Shown piece after piece: positions 52,738 through 60,710 of a stretch of DNA of 64,000 bases. The stretch covers positions 82,026 through 146,025 of the forward strand of contig CAIUKV010000251.1 in the NCBI GenBank assembly GCA_903899845.1. Direction: 5' to 3'. The position numbers and the translations under genes were made by a program. Below the pieces are notes generated by a model. The model saw only the letters and a program-made list of their open reading frames with translations, searched no databases and was not told where the DNA came from. The DNA comes from an uncultured Actinomycetes bacterium. GTDB lineage: Bacteria; Actinomycetota; Acidimicrobiia; IMCC26256; PALSA-555. Position 1 is the stretch's first letter, and each line of letters starts with the position of its first letter.

Positions 52738-54018
52738 ATGTCCGGGCGTACCGGTCGACGGTCCCGAGCGCGCGTGCGGCCCCGGTGGCTCCCGGGGTCC
52801 CGGTGGCCCGTGGTGCCCGTGGTGCTCGTGGTGCTCGTGGTGCTGGCGTCGACGCTCGGTCCGGTCGCCCCTCCGGCCGGTGGCCAGTCCCTGGGCGAGC
52901 TGGTCGACGACCTGGGGCGGGTCCGGGCCTCGCTCGACACGGCCAACGCCCAGTTGATGACCACCCGCGAGCAGCGGATCGTGCTGCAGGGACAGATCGC
53001 CGAGGTCGGCACCCAGATCGACGGCCTGCGAGGTCGCATCGCCGCCGCCCAGGCCGAGATCGACCGCCTCGTGGCTGAGCGCGAGGCGATCCGCCAGGTG
53101 GTGCGGGCCCGGGCCCTGGTGCTCTACCAGCAGCGTCGTCCGGCCGTCCCCACCGCGACGCTCGACTTCGACGCCCCGATGGACCTGGCCCGCCGCCAGG
53201 TGCTGGGTCGGGCCGCCGCCCGCCAGGACGAGGACGCCCGCAGCGCGCTCGCCGCGGCGGGCGACGCGCTCGCGACCGCCCGTGACCAGCTGGCCGCCGA
53301 GCGGGCCCAGCTCGAGGGCCAGGAGGCCGAGCTCGCCGCCCGCCGCCGCCAGCTCGACGAGATCGACGTCCGGATCCGGGCCCAGCAGGCCGAGCTCGAT
53401 GCCCGGGCCCGGGACCTCCAGGGGCGGATCCAGGCCGCCATCGCGGCCGGGGTGATCGCCGCCGGCGGACCGAGCCTGGTCGGACCCACCGCGCTCAGCG
53501 CTGCGCAGATGGCCGCCTGGTGGCGCTCGGTCGGGTACTCCGGGTACAGCGTGTCGGTCCCCATCGAGACCCTGGCCCAGATCTACGTGGCCGAGGGCAC
53601 CGCCGAGGGCGTCCGGGGGGACCTCGCCTTCGCCCAGGCGGTCGTGGAGACGGGCGGCTTCCGCTACACGAACCCCGGCAACAACTTCGCGGGCATGGGC
53701 TGGTGCGACTCGTGCAGCAACGGCCGCCGGTTCCCCACCCCGACCGACGGCGTCCGGGCCCAGATCCAGCACCTCCGCAACTACGGCGACCCGGCGTCGC
53801 GCGCCGCGAACCTGGCCCGGCCGCCGTCGCCCTACTGGTACGCGCCGACCAGCCTCGACCCGGCGGTCGCCGCGGCCAACTTCGACTCGTTCTTCGCGAA
53901 GGGGTGGGCGCTGACCTGGAACCAGATGGGCCGCGGTAACTGGGCCACCGATCCCAACTACGCCCAGAAGGTCCTCACCGTCTACAGCCGGATGGTGGCG
54001 TTCGCCTCGGGCACCTGA
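52738..54018 (+). CDS. Secreted/anchored coiled-coil protein with C-terminal glucosaminidase-type peptidoglycan hydrolase domain
   Basis: Basic N-terminus plus a hydrophobic anchor. About 200 aa are heptad-like and Q/E/R/A-rich. C-terminal FAQAVVETGGF...NNFAGMG. Confidence 0.8.
   Translation: MSGRTGRRSRARVRPRWLPGSRWPVVPVVLVVLVVLASTLGPVAPPAGGQSLGELVDDLGRVRASLDTANAQLMTTREQRIVLQGQIAEVGTQIDGLRGRIAAAQAEIDRLVAEREAIRQVVRARALVLYQQRRPAVPTATLDFDAPMDLARRQVLGRAAARQDEDARSALAAAGDALATARDQLAAERAQLEGQEAELAARRRQLDEIDVRIRAQQAELDARARDLQGRIQAAIAAGVIAAGGPSLVGPTALSAAQMAAWWRSVGYSGYSVSVPIETLAQIYVAEGTAEGVRGDLAFAQAVVETGGFRYTNPGNNFAGMGWCDSCSNGRRFPTPTDGVRAQIQHLRNYGDPASRAANLARPPSPYWYAPTSLDPAVAAANFDSFFAKGWALTWNQMGRGNWATDPNYAQKVLTVYSRMVAFASGT
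52809..52844. repeat. 9-bp tandem repeat x4 (CGTGGTGCY) inside the signal-anchor coding region
   Basis: Encodes PVVPVVLVVLVVL. Confidence 0.8.
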
Positions 54019-54028
54019 GGCGGCGCGC

Positions 54029-54991
54029 TCACCAGTGGTGGTGACCGTCGGCGGGGTCGGCGGGCGCCTCGACCCCGAAGCGGCGGCGGACCTCGGCGAG
54101 CGCGAGCGGGGCCAGGGCGAAGTGGTCGGCGGTGGAGCAGTCGGCGGTGCACCGCGCTCCGCGGGCGAGCTCCTCGCCGAGCAGTCGTGCGGCGTCGGCG
54201 TCGGCGAGGACGCGTGCCTCGGTCCCGAACGTCGGCGACGACCCGAGCCCGGCCTCGTGCACGACGAGCGAGCACAACAGGGCGCCGACGTTGGTCGGGG
54301 TGTCGTCCATCGCCATCTGGAACGCGCTGAGCGCGATCTCCCCCGCGGCCGTGGGCTCGATCCCGGCGATGACGTGGGTCATGTCGTGGGCCACGAAGAA
54401 GTGGTTCATCGAGTGCGCCACCGCTCCGGGGAGACCGATCCCGTGCCGCTCGTAGAACGCGAGGTACGCCCGCCCGAGGGACCCGTCGGGCAGGTCGGCG
54501 AATGCCGCCACCCGCGCCGCGAGGCCCGGCTCGGGCCGGTCGGCGCTGGCCCGTGGCGTCAGGCCCGCCTCGTGACGGGCCTCGATGCTCGCGTCGAGGA
54601 ACCGGGCGAAGTCGGCTGCGGCGCGCTCGGTGCCCTCGGCGACCGCGGTCCGGAACAGCGCGAGGTCGGGACCGGTCACGGCGAGCGCGGTGCAGTACTC
54701 CTCCACCCGGTCCACCTGCTCGGATGTGAGCGGGTGTCGGCACGCCTCGAGCGTGAACAGGATCTCGTGGAAGCGCCGACGCGCAGCCCGGTCGACGATC
54801 GCGGTCGCGGTCGCGGCCGGGTCGGTACCCACCAGCGCGGCGGGGTCGAGGTCCGGGCGCTCCCAGAGGTGGACCGTCACCGCCCGGAGCACGGTCAGCT
54901 GCTCGGTGGTGGGCCCGTCGCCCACGTCGATCGCGCCGACGAGGCCCCGCACGACCGGCTCGACCAGGGCGGGCGGCACGAGACGGGGCAC
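54029..54991 (-). CDS. Coq4-family-like protein (HDxxH-x11-E motif)
   Basis: FFVAHDMTHVIAGIEPTAAGEIALSAF matches the Coq4 Zn-ligand pattern. Start GTG 54991 chosen from the TAGCGT-N7 context (GTG 55000 alternative). Confidence 0.6.
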   Translation of the reverse strand: MPRLVPPALVEPVVRGLVGAIDVGDGPTTEQLTVLRAVTVHLWERPDLDPAALVGTDPAATATAIVDRAARRRFHEILFTLEACRHPLTSEQVDRVEEYCTALAVTGPDLALFRTAVAEGTERAAADFARFLDASIEARHEAGLTPRASADRPEPGLAARVAAFADLPDGSLGRAYLAFYERHGIGLPGAVAHSMNHFFVAHDMTHVIAGIEPTAAGEIALSAFQMAMDDTPTNVGALLCSLVVHEAGLGSSPTFGTEARVLADADAARLLGEELARGARCTADCSTADHFALAPLALAEVRRRFGVEAPADPADGHHHW

Positions 54992-54998
54992 GACCGGC

Positions 54999-55004
54999 AC
55001 GCTA
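54999..55004 (-). promoter_or_regulatory. -10-like TAGCGT, 7 nt before GTG 54991
   Basis: Minus strand reads TAGCGT gccggtc GTG. Confidence 0.35.
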
Positions 55005-55098: not shown

Positions 55099-56493
55099 AT
55101 GGCCGCGACCCCCGGTACGACGGAGCCACGCGGGCACGCGACGCGTCGCCTCGATCCCCGCCGCTGGCGGGTGGGCACCCGGATCGCCGTCGCGATGGTC
55201 CTGTTCGCGACGGTCCCCCTCATTCTCCTCGCCGACGCCGGGGCCGACCGGCTCCGGAACGAGGCGGAACGCGACGCCCGGACCCAGCTCAGCGGCCTCG
55301 CGGCGGCGGTGGCCGCCGGCCTCGACGCCGAGGTGCAAGCGAACCTCGATCTGGTGGAGGCGACCGCCCGGAGCCGGGCCGTCGTCGACTTCGCCGCCGA
55401 CCCGACCCCGGCCCGCACCGCGGCGGTCCAGGCCGAGCTCGACACGCTGAAGGCGACGCACGCCTCGGCCGGGATCTTCTTCGTGCTCGACCCCGCCGGC
55501 ATCGCGGTCGCCAGCTCCGACCGGGCGATCCTCGGCGGCTCCTACGCCTTCCGCCCGTACTTCCAGGACGCCGTCGCCGGAACCACGAACGTGAGCGAGG
55601 TCTACCTCCCCATCGGGACGACCTCGGGCGTGCCCGGCACCGCCTTCGCCACCCCGATCCGGGCCGGCGGGACGACCGGGCCGGTCACGGGCGTGATGGT
55701 CATCAAGAGCGACGCCCTGACCGTGTCACGCTCCCTGACCACCGGCCCGGGCCAGCGCGCCTTCATCGTGGAGTCCACCGGGATCGTCTCGGCCCACCCC
55801 GATCCGGCGATCCGCTTCTCGAGCCTGGCCCCGCTGACCGACGCGCAGCAGGCCGACGCCGCCGCCGCCCGTCGCTTCGACGGACCCGTCGCCACCGTTG
55901 CGGGCACCCCGGAGGTCAGAGCCCTCGTCGGGGCCACCGAACCCGGGATCGCGACCGGCACCCTCGCCGGGTCCGACGTCGTCGTGGCCTGGCGCCCCAT
56001 CCCGTCGACCGACTGGGTCGCAGCCGTGAGCGAGCCGACGTCGGCGTACACGGAAGCCGGCGACCGGGCCCGCCGCGACGCCCTCCTGGTCGCGGCCGCC
56101 GTGGCGGTCGTCGTCGCGCTCCTCGCCGTCGTCGTGGCCCGTCGTATCGGTCACCCGATCACGACGCTGACCGCGGCCGCCGACGCGCTCCAGTCGGGGG
56201 CCGAGGTCGACGAACCTGCGCTCGCCCGCGTGGCCCGGCGGCCCGACGACCTCGGCATCCTCGCCGGTCGGCTCACCGAGGCGGTCCGGGAGACCCGGGC
56301 GCGCGAGGCCCGGCTCGAGGCCCAGGTCGCCGCCCTCCGGGTGGAGGTCGACCAGTCCCGGCGGGCCCAGGACGTGGCCGCCGTGGTGGAGTCGGAGGCG
56401 TTCACCGACATCGCCGCCTGGGCCGCCGACCTGCGCCGCCGGACCCGGGCCGCGGACGCAGGCGACCAGACGGACGGGGAGGTCGGGCCGTGA
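55099..56493 (+). CDS. Membrane sensor: TM - Cache-like periplasmic domain - TM - HAMP - coiled coil, with no recognisable output domain
   Basis: TM1 IAVAMVLFATVPLILLA. Cache-like block YAFRPYFQDA...VSEVY...ATPI...GVMVIKSD. TM2 LLVAAAVAVVVALLAVVVA. HAMP RRIGHPITTL...DDLGILAG. The protein ends about 100 aa later. Confidence 0.75.
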   Translation: MAATPGTTEPRGHATRRLDPRRWRVGTRIAVAMVLFATVPLILLADAGADRLRNEAERDARTQLSGLAAAVAAGLDAEVQANLDLVEATARSRAVVDFAADPTPARTAAVQAELDTLKATHASAGIFFVLDPAGIAVASSDRAILGGSYAFRPYFQDAVAGTTNVSEVYLPIGTTSGVPGTAFATPIRAGGTTGPVTGVMVIKSDALTVSRSLTTGPGQRAFIVESTGIVSAHPDPAIRFSSLAPLTDAQQADAAAARRFDGPVATVAGTPEVRALVGATEPGIATGTLAGSDVVVAWRPIPSTDWVAAVSEPTSAYTEAGDRARRDALLVAAAVAVVVALLAVVVARRIGHPITTLTAAADALQSGAEVDEPALARVARRPDDLGILAGRLTEAVRETRAREARLEAQVAALRVEVDQSRRAQDVAAVVESEAFTDIAAWAADLRRRTRAADAGDQTDGEVGP

Positions 56494-57257
56494 CCCGGTT
56501 CGTGGTCGTCCACGGGTTCACCCGCCGGGTCGGGGCCAGCACGCTGGCCGCGAACCTCGCGCTCGTCCTGGCCCGGTCGGGCCTGCGGGTCGCGCTCGTC
56601 GACACGCACCGCCAGCGCGACAGCATCGGCCCGGCCCTCGGGGTCCGGGCGCAGACGCGGGCGTTCATCGACGCCTGCCGGCTCCCGGGCGCCCCGGAGC
56701 TCCTCGACGACCGGTCCGCCGACTTCCGCCTGCCCGCCGGTGCGCTGGTCGTCCTCCCCGGCGGCCACGACGCCCCCCGGCCCCACGCCGATCCGACCGT
56801 CAGCGCCGACGAGATCACCGCCCTCCTCGGTGCGGTGACGGCGGCGTCGTCCGCCGACTTCGTGGTCCTCGACGGCGAGGCGGGCCTCCACCTCGAGACC
56901 ATGGCCCTGCTCGCGGTGGCCGACGTGCTCGTCGAGGTCATCGAGCCCGAGCCCGCCGGGCACCAGGGCAGCGCGGTCACCCTCGACGTGGCCGAGCGCC
57001 TCGGTGTCCCCCGCCGCCGGATCGTGATGAACCGCGCGCCCGAGGCCCCGGTCCCCGACGTGGACCGCGTCGTGCTCGAGTCCGCGTTCCGCGTGCCGCT
57101 CCTCGGCGCCCTGCCCGAGGCGCCCGAGCTGGACCCGCCGGGCGAGGGCGCGTTCGTGCTCGGGCATCCCGCGCACCCCTGGTCGGCCGCGCTCTACGCC
57201 GTCGCGTCGGCCCTGCTCGACGACGAGATGACCGCGCGCGGGGTCGTCGGCCCCTGA
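56490..57257 (+). CDS. MinD/ParA-fold protein with degenerate Walker A (probable pseudo-ATPase)
   Basis: RFVVVHGFTRRVGASTLAANLALVLARSGLRVALVD aligns by eye with MinD RIIVVTSGKGGVGKTT.... Both P-loop lysines are absent. The Walker B-like FVVLDGEAG is retained. GTGA overlap with the sensor gene. Confidence 0.7.
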   Translation: MTRFVVVHGFTRRVGASTLAANLALVLARSGLRVALVDTHRQRDSIGPALGVRAQTRAFIDACRLPGAPELLDDRSADFRLPAGALVVLPGGHDAPRPHADPTVSADEITALLGAVTAASSADFVVLDGEAGLHLETMALLAVADVLVEVIEPEPAGHQGSAVTLDVAERLGVPRRRIVMNRAPEAPVPDVDRVVLESAFRVPLLGALPEAPELDPPGEGAFVLGHPAHPWSAALYAVASALLDDEMTARGVVGP

Positions 57258-57303
57258 CCGGCCCCTGACCGGCCCCTGACCGGCGACGGTCCGGCGACGG
57301 TCA
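57249..57303. repeat. 11-bp-period tandem array: GGCCCCTGACC x3, then GGCGACGGTCC and GGCGACGGTCA
   Basis: Spans the whole convergent junction. Includes the stop codons of both flanking genes. Confidence 0.9.
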
Positions 57304-58407
57304 GCCGGCGAGTGCCGTGGCCGCGGCGTAGGAGAGCGGGATGCCGACCGCCACGTTGATCGGGAAGGTGATGCCGAGGGCGAGGGTGAAGTAGCGGCTC
57401 GGGCGCGCCTCGGGGATGGCGTAGCGCACCACCGCGGGCACCACGATGTAGCTCCCGCTCGCCGCGAGGACGGCGAGCAGGGTGAGGTCCCCCACCCCGA
57501 GGCCCAGGGCGCTGCCGAGGGCGAGCGCGGCGGCGCCGTTCACGAACGGCACCACGACGCCGAAGCCGATCAGGAACGGGCCGACGTCGCGGACCTCGCG
57601 CAGCTGCCGCGCCACCAGCAGGCCCATCTCGAGCAGGAAGAAGGCGAGCAGACCCTTGAACAGGTCCTCGGTGAAGGGCGCCATCGCACGCCCGCCGGCG
57701 TCGCCACTGACCGCGCCCACCACCAGCGATCCGATGAGGAGGAGGTGCGCACCGTCGGTGAACGCCTCGCGCAGCACCTCCCCGATCGACAGCGGCGTCC
57801 CGGACCCGGCGTGGCCGGTCTCGTCGGGGCCCGGCTGCCCCGACGGGTGCGCCGCCTCGGGGACGATCGTCCCGGCGTCGATCGACGCCAGACCCGCCGC
57901 CGGGCCGGCGACCCCGTCGGCGAGACCGTGCGGGGCCACGCCGGACCGGGACCGGACCCACGTGGCCAGGAGGACGGCCATCACGATCGCGGGCGACTCC
58001 ATGATCACCAGGGCGACGGTGAGGTAGCCGCCCGCCGGGTCACCGCGGCCGGCCACGAACTGGGAGGCGGTCACGAACGTGACAGCGCTGACCGACCCGT
58101 AGGTGGCGGCGATCGCCGCAGCGTCGAACGCGTTCACCCGCTTCCGCAGCACGACGAACCAGACCGCCGGGATCACCAGGGCGAGGAGCAACGCGGCGCC
58201 GAGGACCTTCACGGCGTCGCCGCCGATGCCCGCGTCGGCGAGCGCCTGGCCACCCTTGAAGCCGAGCGCCATGAGCAGGTAGAGCGAGAGGAACTTGGCG
58301 ATCGCGGCCGGGATCTCGAGGTTGGAGCGGACCAGGCCGATCACGAGACCGAGGAAGAAGAACAGGACGGCCGGGTCGGTCAGGTTCTTCAGGACGTCGG
58401 CGTCCAC
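57301..58407 (-). CDS. SbtA-like (sodium-dependent bicarbonate transporter family, PF05982) permease
   Basis: LTDPAVLFFFLGLVIGLVRSNLEIP...KFLSLYLLMALGFKGG. Two 5-TM halves are separated by a Gly/Pro-rich loop. Confidence 0.8.
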   Translation of the reverse strand: MDADVLKNLTDPAVLFFFLGLVIGLVRSNLEIPAAIAKFLSLYLLMALGFKGGQALADAGIGGDAVKVLGAALLLALVIPAVWFVVLRKRVNAFDAAAIAATYGSVSAVTFVTASQFVAGRGDPAGGYLTVALVIMESPAIVMAVLLATWVRSRSGVAPHGLADGVAGPAAGLASIDAGTIVPEAAHPSGQPGPDETGHAGSGTPLSIGEVLREAFTDGAHLLLIGSLVVGAVSGDAGGRAMAPFTEDLFKGLLAFFLLEMGLLVARQLREVRDVGPFLIGFGVVVPFVNGAAALALGSALGLGVGDLTLLAVLAASGSYIVVPAVVRYAIPEARPSRYFTLALGITFPINVAVGIPLSYAAATALAG

Positions 58408-58524: not shown

Positions 58525-59508
58525 TCACTCGCAGCCGACCCCGTCGCCGTCCCGGTCGAGGGCGGCCCGGTAGCCCGGGTCACCGACCCGGACCGGCGCA
58601 GCCCCGGCGAGGCGGGCCGCCGTGCAGTTGGCGTAGTAGACGCTGCCGTCGCCCGCCGGCGGGGCGGGCGCCGGGCCGGGCGGCGCGGCCGGGGCGGCGG
58701 GGACCGGGGTCACCGGGGCGCCGGCCGGGCACCCGGCGAGCATGTTGGCGAGGGCGTTGCGCTCGGCCGGGTCCACCGTGAGCCCCCACCGCACCTTGGT
58801 CGCGATCCAGGCGTCGGCGAACTCGCACCACGCCGAGCGGTTCGGCGGCTGCCACTCGGCCGGGTCGCGGTCGGACTTCGACCGGTTGGTCGATGCCGTG
58901 ACCGCGATGAGCGCCCGCGGGTCCCCGAGGTCGTTGGCGAACGCCCGCCGCCGCCCTGCGTCCCACGCCCAGGCCCCGGAGTCCCACGCCTCGGCGAGGG
59001 CCACCACGTGGTCGACGTCGAGCTCCGAGGAGCTGTCGGTCGAGTACCCGTCGTAGATCGACAGCCACCCCACGGTCAGGCCCGGCAGATCGGTTCGCCG
59101 CTCGGCGGCCAGCACCTCGCAGCGGGTGTCGCAGCCGTCGCCGTCGTCGTCGACCCAGTGCACGAACAGCCCCCGGTCGTAGCCGGGGCGGGGACCCTCG
59201 GCCTCGACCACGAGCCGGTCGAGGTCGGCGGCGGCCGCGGCCACGACGGGCGCCCGGGCCGGGGCCGGAGCCGTCGGCCGCACGGTGGGGGGCACCGTCG
59301 ACGGCGGGACGGTCGCTCGCGTGGTGGGCGGGACCGTGGGCGGGGAGGTCGCGACCGGTGCCGGACGCTCGGCGCTGCGCACCTCGGGGTCCGTCCCGCC
59401 GCACTGCTCGAGCACCACCGCCAGCACCAGGACGGCCCCGGCCACGAGGGCGACCCGGCGCCAGCCGACGCGCGCGCCGAGCCGGGACGGCGACCCTGGG
59501 GAATTCAT
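58525..59508 (-). CDS. Secreted DUF1524 (HNH/GmrSD-C-like) nuclease fused to an Excalibur Ca-binding domain
   Basis: Signal anchor, Pro/Thr linker, DVDHVVALAEAWDSGA...NRSKSDRDPAEWQPP, and C-terminal DRDGDGVGCE. Confidence 0.8.
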   Translation of the reverse strand: MNSPGSPSRLGARVGWRRVALVAGAVLVLAVVLEQCGGTDPEVRSAERPAPVATSPPTVPPTTRATVPPSTVPPTVRPTAPAPARAPVVAAAAADLDRLVVEAEGPRPGYDRGLFVHWVDDDGDGCDTRCEVLAAERRTDLPGLTVGWLSIYDGYSTDSSSELDVDHVVALAEAWDSGAWAWDAGRRRAFANDLGDPRALIAVTASTNRSKSDRDPAEWQPPNRSAWCEFADAWIATKVRWGLTVDPAERNALANMLAGCPAGAPVTPVPAAPAAPPGPAPAPPAGDGSVYYANCTAARLAGAAPVRVGDPGYRAALDRDGDGVGCE

Positions 59509-59587
59509 GTCCTCATTGTTCCATTTCGGAGGCTCCGGCAGGGGGCATCGGAGGACGTCGACCCCCGGGAGGAGACCCGACGGCACC

Positions 59588-59614
59588 CACCGCCCCCACC
59601 GCCCCCACCGCCCC
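59588..59614. repeat. 9-bp tandem repeat x3 (CACCGCCCC)
   Basis: In the 209-bp divergent intergenic region. Confidence 0.85.
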
Positions 59615-59674
59615 GGCGAGACCCCGGCGCAAGGTCCTGTCAAGGTCGCCTCCGTACCCTCCCTCCCGACCGAC

Positions 59675-59707
59675 CGATCGAGGGGCGATCGGGGGGCGAC
59701 CGAGGGG
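59675..59707. repeat. 11-bp tandem repeat x3 (CGATCGAGGGG, CGATCGGGGGG, CGACCGAGGGG)
   Basis: Lies immediately upstream of, and merges into, the SD sequence of CDS 59718. Confidence 0.85.
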
Positions 59708-59717
59708 GAGGACCACC

Positions 59718-60710
59718 GTGCCGACGACCGGAACGACCGACGCCGTGCAGCTCCGGACGGACCGGGGCCGGCGTCGCCGACGTCACGGCCTGGCGGCGGT
59801 GCTCGTCGTCCTGTCCACCGGGGTTCTGGTCCCGGCCGTCCCGGCCGGTGCCCAGTCGGCCACCGCAACCACCCAGGGGAAGTCCTGGAAGGTCGGTGAC
59901 TGCTTCGCCAAGGCGGACCTCGAGGCCGACTCGGTCGTGCTCTCCTCGAAGGTCTCGTGCGACAAGCCGCACTCCGTGCAGATCCTGCACGGCGCGCCCC
60001 TCGCCTCGTTCGGCGCGCCCCTGGCCACCGCGTCGATCAAGACCCTGCAGCGGCAGTCGGGGCCCGAGTACACGGCGCTCCAGGCCGCCGCGGCCAGGAC
60101 GTGCACCACCGCCAACGTCCTCGCCGGGGCGTACCCCCAGAAGGGGTCGGCGCTCGCGACCGCACTCGGGTCGGCGCAGAGCGTCAGCCCGGGGACGTTG
60201 GGCCAGAACGGGTGGGTCGTGCCCGACCCCCGATCCTTCAACGCGGGCAACCGCGACCTGCTGTGCGTCTACTCGACCAACCCGGGCGACTACGGCGAGC
60301 GGGGCGACCTCCGTCGGCTCGAGACCACCGCGGTGCTGCCCGACACCCGGCTCTGCGCGAACTGGGGCGCGTCCCAGCGTTCGTCCTGTGCCCGCCCGCA
60401 CGACATCGAGACGCTGCTGTTCTTCGAGACGCCCCTCGCCGGACGACCCCAGACCCTCGGCGCCTGGGGCACCACCGACTACTCCACCCCCGAGGAGCGC
60501 CAGGCCTGCGCCGCGGCCGCCCGCGTCCTCATGGGTGCCGAGCGACCGGACGTGACGACCGGGGTCTTCCCCAACACCTTCGCCACCCGCGACGGTGCGC
60601 CGATCGTCCTCCTCGAGTGCCAGGTCTACACCGCCGACGAGACGCTGCGGTTCCCGCCGGGGACGCTCACCGGGATCGGGTCGGGACCGATCACGTTCGG
60701 GAAGGTCTGA
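59718..60710 (+). CDS. Secreted Cys-rich protein, possibly septum-formation (PF13845-like) family
   Basis: Arg-rich N-terminus plus a signal (AVPAGAQSA). Two copies of the C...SC(D/A)(K/R)PH...(E/Q) pattern. The family call is tentative. Confidence 0.6.
   Translation: MPTTGTTDAVQLRTDRGRRRRRHGLAAVLVVLSTGVLVPAVPAGAQSATATTQGKSWKVGDCFAKADLEADSVVLSSKVSCDKPHSVQILHGAPLASFGAPLATASIKTLQRQSGPEYTALQAAAARTCTTANVLAGAYPQKGSALATALGSAQSVSPGTLGQNGWVVPDPRSFNAGNRDLLCVYSTNPGDYGERGDLRRLETTAVLPDTRLCANWGASQRSSCARPHDIETLLFFETPLAGRPQTLGAWGTTDYSTPEERQACAAAARVLMGAERPDVTTGVFPNTFATRDGAPIVLLECQVYTADETLRFPPGTLTGIGSGPITFGKV

Follow-up and report, generated by a model that had tools for sequence, protein, structure and literature searches.

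ParA/MinD ATPases are organisers of cell space, acting on chromosomes, the divisome, flagella, carboxysomes and secretion machines, and TadZ has a receiver-like N-terminal domain. Receivers, sensors and signal transduction are nowhere mentioned in a 2024 review of these ATPases (PMC11407121). From the side of the sensors, a census of proteins with a signalling helix (S-helix) listed kinases, cyclases, PP2C, GGDEF/EAL/HD-GYP domains and NtrC ATPases as outputs, and no MinD-like domain (PMC1592074). In Escherichia coli BcsQ, MinD K11, K16 and the catalytic Asp have R10, T15 and C39 as their counterparts (PMC7840130; Walker A table in PMC9178275), and the purified protein is an ATP-bound sandwich dimer that is stable and shows very weak ATPase activity (PMC7840130). 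Here we analyse a pair of overlapping genes, encoding a membrane sensor and a MinD/ParA-fold protein, in a stretch of 64,000 nucleotides from an uncultured Actinomycetes bacterium (contig CAIUKV010000251.1, positions 82,026 to 146,025), which as a whole is called the window below.

We consider it probable, at roughly 70%, that the two genes are a split and degenerate form of a sensor–module–MinD/ParA signalling unit whose ATPase has lost its catalytic residues. Domain order, topology, the module, its genetic and fusion linkage to one clade of MinD-like proteins and the loss of catalytic residues were all observed directly. As the sequences read, the plan of the unit is one or more input domains, a HAMP-like helix, a helical module of ~50 residues and a MinD/ParA-fold ATPase with the Walker A motif HSFRGGTGKS. 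Both this clade and the sensor-module-MinD-like unit are groupings defined in the present analysis, and the clade is without a curated model.

The sensor tail, its MinD-like clade and their linkage

The layout of the sensor (Table 1) agrees with the description in an earlier note on this DNA, which had listed a transmembrane segment, a Cache-like domain, a second transmembrane segment, HAMP and about 100 further residues in a protein of 464 residues. Hydropathy and Pfam recovered the same order, with HAMP below the threshold; the HAMP segments of relatives with which tblastn aligns it exceed the Pfam cut-off (e.g., 38.3 bits in locus L027 and 31.3 bits in L044). The dCache_1 domain reaches the Pfam gathering score and sits between the transmembrane segments at residues 29–47 and 328–346. 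The open reading frame (ORF), which is also called as a gene on public contigs, starts with an ATG with GGAG in front of it, and the Arg-rich N-terminus is probably cytoplasmic. The absence of a kinase, cyclase, GGDEF or MCP module was also seen correctly. Pfam gave no HisKA, HATPase_c, GGDEF, cyclase or MCPsignal match to the sensor at E<=1, and the NCBIfam kinase matches, of 11–25 bits, were confined to the HAMP region. An output of the pair other than phosphotransfer, as proposed earlier, is supported.

The description of the sensor as output-less did not survive the analysis. Its tail carries a conserved module (residues 400–449, 52.4 bits) within a region, residues 396–464, that is covered by no Pfam or NCBIfam model. 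The gapless alignment of 19 modules gives the consensus RExxLxQQVxELRIEIDExKRxQQVxEITETDYFxxLxxxAxxLR, and the pattern RExxL...IEID...V...F..L..A...R stands directly before the MinD-like gene in the window, with 44 nt between the end of the module and the overlapping start. When the sensor was compared by tblastn with 37 genome loci that the MinD-like protein had retrieved, the matches outside close relatives mostly spanned only sensor residues ~325–464; in L015, L016, L022, L027, L031, L032, L036 and L037 the module match lies immediately upstream of the MinD-like gene. The inputs that precede the module are varied and include, by Pfam, REC, cNMP_binding, HAMP alone, dCache_1-HAMP, CHASE3-HAMP-GAF, 7TMR-DISM-GAF and GAF. 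In L022, a REC-module protein is encoded behind a hybrid kinase of 1487 aa with the order PAS-GAF-HisKA-HATPase-REC-REC-Hpt. Hundreds of sensor C-termini are found by the module profile, although its search of a set of 5.8 billion proteins gave mainly short fragments and is poorly suited to a census of architectures. In the AlphaFold2 model of the fusion protein P0204 the module is predicted to be helical and continuous with the preceding HAMP-like helix. We conclude that the sensor is not output-less and that the module is a recurrent connector between many input domains and one MinD-like clade.

A search of the PDB with the module profile revealed no relative, only a designed helical scaffold and GCN4, both at E>0.05. 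Identity of the module with HalX was considered and rejected, as the match is weak (E=0.02 in 4 of 19 modules) and was treated as noise from helical composition. Stand-alone proteins of 55–80 aa with little beyond the module were also found (P0090, P0116, P0119 and P0120, on contigs of 34–194 kb); they could be free regulators of MinD-like ATPases. At three loci (L023 4581-5948, L033 115-2562 and L038 180-2606) the module is not terminal, and a conserved extension of ~130 aa, without a Pfam match and reading ...MTLSELA..L....EAR..G..LV.KGFL..., separates it from the MinD-like gene.

The clade to which the module leads is marked by the Walker A motif HSFR[GR]GTGKS, with Phe in place of the first Gly, Arg in place of the signature Lys and the P-loop Lys intact. 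The window protein, searched exhaustively with phmmer against 1.84 billion representatives, returned only 716 proteins at E<=1e-3, and those inspected among them are all of the HSFRGGTGKS type. The window protein keeps the residues H8, F10, D38, D128-x3-G132, Q159-G160, N181, P209 and P227-x-H229 that mark membership. No NCBIfam model attains its cut-off with the clade; its canonical members score 59–77 bits with AAA_KGGVGR, for which the cut-off is 90, and well below the cut-off with minD_arch.

Module and clade are genetically linked. In genome loci seeded with the MinD-like protein, hidden Markov models placed the module within 6 kb in 27 of 36 and directly upstream on the same strand in 17 of 36. 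Starting from the module, a clade MinD-like gene was found in 14 of the 23 metagenome loci of at least 7 kb, a scan that was seeded with four close modules and whose loci are biased towards Chloroflexota-type sequences. Two sensors, or tandem sets of two or three MinD-like paralogues, are present in some loci, and the wiring from sensor to MinD-like protein may be many-to-one.

Natural fusions also occur, several family representatives carrying module and ATPase in one chain. A search seeded with P0204 returned more than 90 fused proteins of ~700–750 aa, of which those with a named source are cyanobacterial. They run from REC through a HAMP-like helix, the module and a linker of 50–80 residues to the MinD-like domain, most of them with an N-terminal HisKA, and are annotated just as 'response regulator' (e.g., WP_072218021.1 from Leptolyngbya sp. 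NIES-2104). Other fusions have the order dCache_1-HAMP-module-MinD-like (P0384, P0390 and P0388), cNMP-module-MinD-like (P0381), PAS-module-MinD (P0234 and P0274) or module-MinD-like (P0391 and P0368). The linker between module and ATPase is long in many fusions, being disordered in the P0204 model, and ~12 residues in the dCache fusions. Residues 354–504 of P0384 match the window sensor at 306–458 (31% identity, E=8e-20) and its residues 509–759 match the MinD-like protein at 3–244 (27% identity, E=1e-23), so that P0384 is collinear with the two genes of the window and has its junction at the gene boundary. By this collinearity, the two window genes make up, in split form, a unit that is encoded as one polypeptide elsewhere.

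In the window, the two genes are joined by the GTGA overlap that the earlier note had placed at 56490–56493, an arrangement which suggests translational coupling. The 4-nt overlap recurs in L004, L005 and L126, and the genes of L125 also overlap. Whether the pairing is conserved had been left for comparison with related genomes; it is kept, overlapping, in all close relatives (L004, L005/L006 and L008) and in the distant actinobacterial pairs L125 and L126. Together with the natural collinear fusions, the conserved overlap supports the earlier idea of a sensor/MinD-like signalling pair. The window pair is not a one-off but a degenerate member of a large uncharacterised family.

Several further features of the clade were seen. 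Tandem paralogues, two or three in number, are frequent (11 of 36 genome loci), as in the Chloroflexota and metagenome loci L007, L010, L011, L014, L017 and L094, which suggests hetero-dimers or several switches per sensor set. In L126, clade MinD-like genes (3-275 and 1684-2463) lie on either side of the actinobacterial dCache sensor, the upstream one being truncated where the contig ends. The clade, or a close relative reading HSYKGGTGKT, is present in a Bathyarchaeia metagenome-assembled genome (MAG; L043 3881-4621) and in a 'Patescibacteria' MAG (L032), the latter with a layout nearly identical to that of the Chloroflexia locus L031, so that a binning error is possible. In P0185, a protein of 706 aa from high-GC DNA, the N-terminus is formed by a canonical HSFRGGTGKS MinD-like domain, and the C-terminal half, which is long and Ala/Pro-rich, has an apparent second, degenerate MinD-like region (…WAVHAPKGNSGCTRLVAGLAAALAEGGWRVLAVDG…).

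Fold, nucleotide site and genomic setting of the MinD-like protein

The MinD/ParA topology recognised earlier in the second gene is borne out by profile and structure comparisons. A profile of the window protein and four relatives aligned over its full length with archaeal MinD 1hyq (residues 1–240, E=1.8e-17). The AlphaFold2 model has a predicted local distance difference test score (pLDDT) of 94.3 and a predicted TM-score (pTM) of 0.93, and in Foldseek it comes closest to MinD, FlhG and FleN (TM-scores 0.72–0.83, probability 1.00). The protein belongs to the MinD/ParA (SIMIBI) fold superfamily only. It is far from MinD proper (TIGR01969 50.3 bits vs. 201.75; TIGR01968 26.5 bits vs. 212.9). 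The last helix in the AlphaFold2 model, 230–249, is a core helix followed by six residues, leaving no C-terminal membrane-targeting helix, and no min genes are among the called neighbours of the pair. Nor does it qualify as a ParA partition ATPase (NF041546 31.2 bits vs. 180), its flanks being the Cache sensor and an SbtA-like permease, or as BcsQ (TIGR03371 31.9 bits vs. 157.85; PF06564 17.7 bits vs. 21.3), with no bcs genes among the called neighbours, or as TadZ/CpaE/Ssd (TIGR03815 15.9 bits vs. 154.45).

The formal alignment with E. coli MinD places GFTRRVGAS opposite SGKGGVGKT and so confirms that both lysines are gone, K11 being replaced by Thr and K16 by Ala. Thr takes the place of Lys16 in three sister lineages (G-T-S), and Gly13 has become Arg. 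Instead of the intact G-K-[ST] P-loop and the D-x-D switch I of the clade, the window protein thus has G-A-S and D-T-H. The degenerate P-loop is common to four lineages only, those of the window, L004, L005/L006 and L008, which read F-T-R-R-V-G-[AT]-S and D-[TAS]-H and share ~74% overall identity. The nearest relatives that keep the Lys are P0126 (FRRGVAKS, 40% identity) and P0128 (FRRGVGKS, 42% identity), each preceded by an orthologous overlapping dCache-HAMP-module sensor (4 nt in L126). Among 152 family representatives the P-loop position is occupied by Lys in 121, Arg in 17 and other residues in ~11, a spread which indicates that loss of the Lys is sporadic elsewhere too. By these comparisons, the P-loop loss in the window lineage is a local, derived and recent state.

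At least 75% of the family share the residue at each of 41 positions, and 14 of these are replaced, mostly conservatively, in all four lineages of the window clade. The non-conservative replacements are G13R, K16A/T, P44D in switch I and D157G, plus the change from DTD to DTH, and the losses cluster at the nucleotide site. Ser17 (Mg-binding), Asp38 (switch I), Asp128 (Walker B), Gly132, Asn181 (base-contacting) and Pro209 are kept. The window protein is most likely hydrolysis-dead, to judge from its residues. Of the earlier proposal of a nucleotide-independent protein, the part that stands is the loss of the catalytic Lys and Asp; a loss of nucleotide binding is not implied, and this part is unproven, because BcsQ with comparable substitutions still binds ATP and because Ser17, Asp38, Asp128 and Asn181 are retained. 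By analogy with BcsQ, the window protein may be permanently nucleotide-loaded rather than nucleotide-free.

Table 1. Features of the sensor/MinD-like gene pair and its neighbours, in positions of the window.
Feature	Position	Strand	Description
Secreted protein with glucosaminidase	52738-54018	+	426 aa (414 aa on public contigs); glucosaminidase E=3.8e-10
Coq4-like gene	54029..55000	-	divergent; Pfam Coq4 26.5 bits; syntenic only in close relatives
Sensor gene	55099..56493	+	464 aa: TM1, dCache_1, TM2, HAMP, C-terminal coupling module; ORF and Pfam
Transmembrane segment 1 (TM1)	55183..55239	+	residues 29-47, IAVAMVLFATVPLILLADA; Kyte-Doolittle 19-residue window, score 2.35
Extracytoplasmic dCache_1	55261..56028	+	residues 55-310; Pfam PF02743 66.7 bits, E=2.9e-18, cut-off 45
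Transmembrane segment 2 (TM2)	56080..56136	+	residues 328-346; hydropathy score 3.23
HAMP	56131..56283	+	residues 345-395; Pfam 20.2 bits, E=7.5e-4, sub-threshold (cut-off 25)
Coupling module	56296..56445	+	residues 400-449, RAREARLEAQVAALRVEVDQSRRAQDVAAVVESEAFTDIAAWAADLRRRT; 18-protein profile without the window sequence, 52.4 bits, E=2e-12 at Z=1e6
GTGA stop/start overlap	56490..56493	+	sensor TGA overlaps MinD-like GTG; GGGGAGG precedes
MinD/ParA-fold protein	56490..57257	+	255 aa; degenerate member of the HSFRGGTGKS clade
Degenerate P-loop HGFTRRVGAS	56511..56540	+	family consensus HSFR[GR]GTGKS; MinD TSGKGGVGKT
Switch I DTH	56601..56609	+	family DTD, MinD DFD; second, water-activating Asp replaced by His
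Walker B FVVLDGEAG	56859..56885	+	retained; Asp128 and Gly132 nearly invariant in the family
SbtA-like permease	57301-58407	-	Pfam Sbt_1 E=8.5e-104; convergent with the MinD-like gene, 43 bp apart

The Coq4-like gene, the peptidoglycan hydrolase and the SbtA-like permease, named earlier as neighbours, were all recovered by Pfam. They are syntenic in all close relatives, an arrangement that is absent from L125, L126 and all distant loci. A role in McdA-type carboxysome positioning, which the SbtA-like neighbour brought to mind, was rejected: only close relatives share this synteny, and it is the link to sensors that defines the clade. The glucosaminidase protein has a long coiled coil and a C-terminal enzyme domain, and it weakly matches the NCBIfam model of the hormogonium morphoprotein TftA (62 bits vs. 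a cut-off of 500). Beyond the permease, an ORF at 58525-59868 on the minus strand has an HNH/GmrSD_C-like and Excalibur-like C-terminus, its orthologues in L004 and L005 are annotated with PF07510 and PF05901, and its product is probably a secreted nuclease-like protein. ORF clustering across 121 loci revealed no conserved downstream effector, the neighbours being lineage-specific, and the PADLOC anti-phage models matched neither the sensor nor the MinD-like protein. The window has ~75% G+C throughout, and a promoter and terminator scan found nothing, as expected at this composition. Contigs of up to 157 kb from ENA, NCBI and Logan carry the same or a near-identical locus. Among species-representative genomes, the Actinomycetota MAG VGBI01000070 (L008) is the closest, with a MinD-like protein 73% identical to that of the window.

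Proposed signal path and alternative explanations

In the path we propose, the extracytoplasmic dCache_1 domain would bind a small ligand, and TM2 and HAMP would pass the change on to a dimeric C-terminal helix. This helix may recruit the MinD-like protein, or alter its dimer or partner-binding state, and the overlapping start codon would probably cause the two proteins to be produced together. The module would, by analogy, do for its ATPase what MinE, the ParB N-terminal peptide, PomX or BcsR does for the respective one. It is more likely to work through binding than as a rigid lever, because the linker is disordered in many fusions. In canonical members, the intact GKS P-loop would allow ATP-dependent dimerisation and hydrolysis and so make a resettable switch or timer. 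The window MinD-like protein would instead be a receptor-controlled adaptor, either permanently nucleotide-loaded, as BcsQ is, or nucleotide-free. A broader proposal, to which we give even odds, is that the pair is a degenerate, 'locked' member of an undescribed class spanning phyla, in which diverse inputs (REC fed by hybrid kinases, Cache/HAMP receptors, GAF, PAS and cNMP-binding) lead through the ~50-residue module to a fused or adjacent MinD/ParA ATPase and the output would be an ATP-dependent dimerisation or positioning switch instead of phosphorylation, a second messenger or DNA binding.

Several observations weigh against the reading of the pair as a split, degenerate signalling unit. 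The partner is not nearby in about a quarter of the MinD-seeded loci and ~40% of the long module-seeded ones; coupling may often be in trans, or the module may be a mere dimerising helix and adjacency a matter of co-regulation. In the AlphaFold2 model of the fusion P0204, taken as a proxy for the complex, the domains themselves fold, but the module is a long helix of pLDDT 58–71, the overall pTM is 0.57, and there is no confident docking of the module onto the ATPase. The recurrent neighbours (SBP_bac_5, D-Ala-D-Ala ligase, SET, GNAT and SDF) appear to reflect lineage-specific synteny and point to no effector. The ratio of nonsynonymous to synonymous substitution rates (dN/dS) is only moderately low, and the MinD-like protein is 73–74% identical to its counterparts in L004 and L008, as against 88–90% for the sensor; this faster divergence could reflect relaxed constraint.

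The last point leads to the possibility that the MinD-like gene is in decay, encoding a pseudo-enzyme that is nearing loss and leaving the sensor without a working partner. The lost catalytic residues and the nonsynonymous divergence from L004 and L008 (dN 0.16–0.18 in the MinD-like gene, 0.06–0.07 in the sensor) would fit such decay. Yet both genes are intact in the four lineages, with full-length ORFs and the 4-nt overlap kept over a distance of ~26% in protein, and pairwise dN/dS is 0.25–0.38, the values of the MinD-like gene being like those of the sensor. These figures point to purifying selection on both genes and to a MinD-like protein that is maintained, though it changes faster than the sensor. 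The degenerate P-loop is itself conserved in four of four lineages, at least one of them still has the family residue at 27 of the 41 conserved positions, and the AlphaFold2 model is very confident, so we hold decay to be very unlikely. As a separate observation, dS against L004/L008 also differs between the genes, being about 0.25 for the sensor and 0.47–0.61 for the MinD-like gene, and the gap in divergence could stem from faster evolution of the MinD-like gene or from recombination within the operon.

Adjacency could also mean co-expression only, with an independent MinD-like protein in positioning or envelope work, e.g., alongside the coiled-coil glucosaminidase, and a sensor tail that serves as a dimerisation helix. 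MinD/ParA proteins often position envelope machines (PMC11407121), the glucosaminidase, Coq4-like and SbtA-like genes accompany the pair in all close relatives, and the lack of docking in AlphaFold2 agrees with such independence. That synteny, however, does not extend to L125, L126 or any distant locus, and repeated independent fusions of different inputs, always via the module, to one clade argue for direct functional coupling; mere co-expression is accordingly unlikely in our view. The picture drawn in the earlier note, of a truly output-less sensor with a generic coiled coil beside a nucleotide-independent scaffold in an architecture unique to the lineage, gains from the lack of a catalytic output domain, from the missing lysines and from there being only four close MinD-like homologues among 5.8 billion sequences. 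It is nonetheless improbable, as the tail is a specific conserved module found at hundreds of sensor C-termini, the architecture is widespread in both split and fused form, and loss of the Lys need not abolish nucleotide binding. We therefore retain the reading of the window genes as a split, degenerate sensor–module–MinD/ParA unit.

Comparison with known systems

The full-text literature searched, in which subscription papers are thinly covered, yielded no account of module, clade or fusions, so that an earlier description is possible; the earlier note's statement that no characterised system has this architecture is consistent with the literature searched. The components are of known kinds, modular sensors on the one side and MinD/ParA ATPases with peptide partners on the other, and the family as a whole stands a fair chance of being an undescribed output class. 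With a conserved connector of this kind, leading from sensory domains to a dedicated MinD-like clade and present in Cyanobacteria, Chloroflexota and Actinomycetota, bacterial signalling would gain a new type of output, and there would be an entry point into how signals from the environment come to act on spatial organisation. Being short and sharply defined, the module could be turned into a domain model. Named strains are the source of the fused cyanobacterial 'response regulators', and these, together with the Pseudonocardia pairs, could be studied by experiment; one such pair, in L015 of Pseudonocardia oceani, consists of a REC-module protein and a GKS-bearing partner.

Among described sensors, those coupled through S-helix and HAMP to histidine kinases, GGDEF domains, cyclases, PP2C or NtrC AAA+ domains follow the same succession of input, dimeric signalling helix and an output that depends on dimer geometry. 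The family described here differs in that its output is a MinD/ParA-fold protein, often on a separate polypeptide or on a disordered linker. TadZ/CpaE and FlhG/FleN resemble it in combining a MinD-like domain with signalling or regulatory modules, or in acting on them; FleN binds FleQ, and PDB entries 8pb9 and 7ejw are among the structural matches of the window model. The window protein nevertheless scores far under the TadZ cut-off and has no pilus or flagellar genes nearby, and the coupling of its family through a dedicated helical module after HAMP, REC, GAF or PAS is not found in those systems.

With MinD-MinE/MinC, ParA with the ParB peptide and PomZ-PomX/PomY, the window protein shares its fold, archaeal MinD being the best solved match, and the binding of a short helical or peptide partner to the ATPase dimer is the logic proposed for the module. 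Unlike these proteins, it has neither lysine of KGGxxK[ST] and lacks the C-terminal membrane-targeting helix; no minC, minE or parB is adjacent to it, and its partner is the tail of a signal receptor. The likeness to BcsQ with BcsR lies in a Lys-less MinD-fold scaffold, which in BcsQ is a dimer held by a small helical partner, and in the changes TRRVG[AT]S and DTH of the window clade at the same positions. As in BcsQ, the window variant is a natural experiment on which parts of the system survive the loss of ATPase chemistry. The two are nonetheless distinct: the window protein fails the BcsQ models and has no bcs genes nearby, Gly13 is replaced by Arg in the window protein and not in BcsQ, and its partner is not BcsR but a transmembrane Cache/HAMP receptor.

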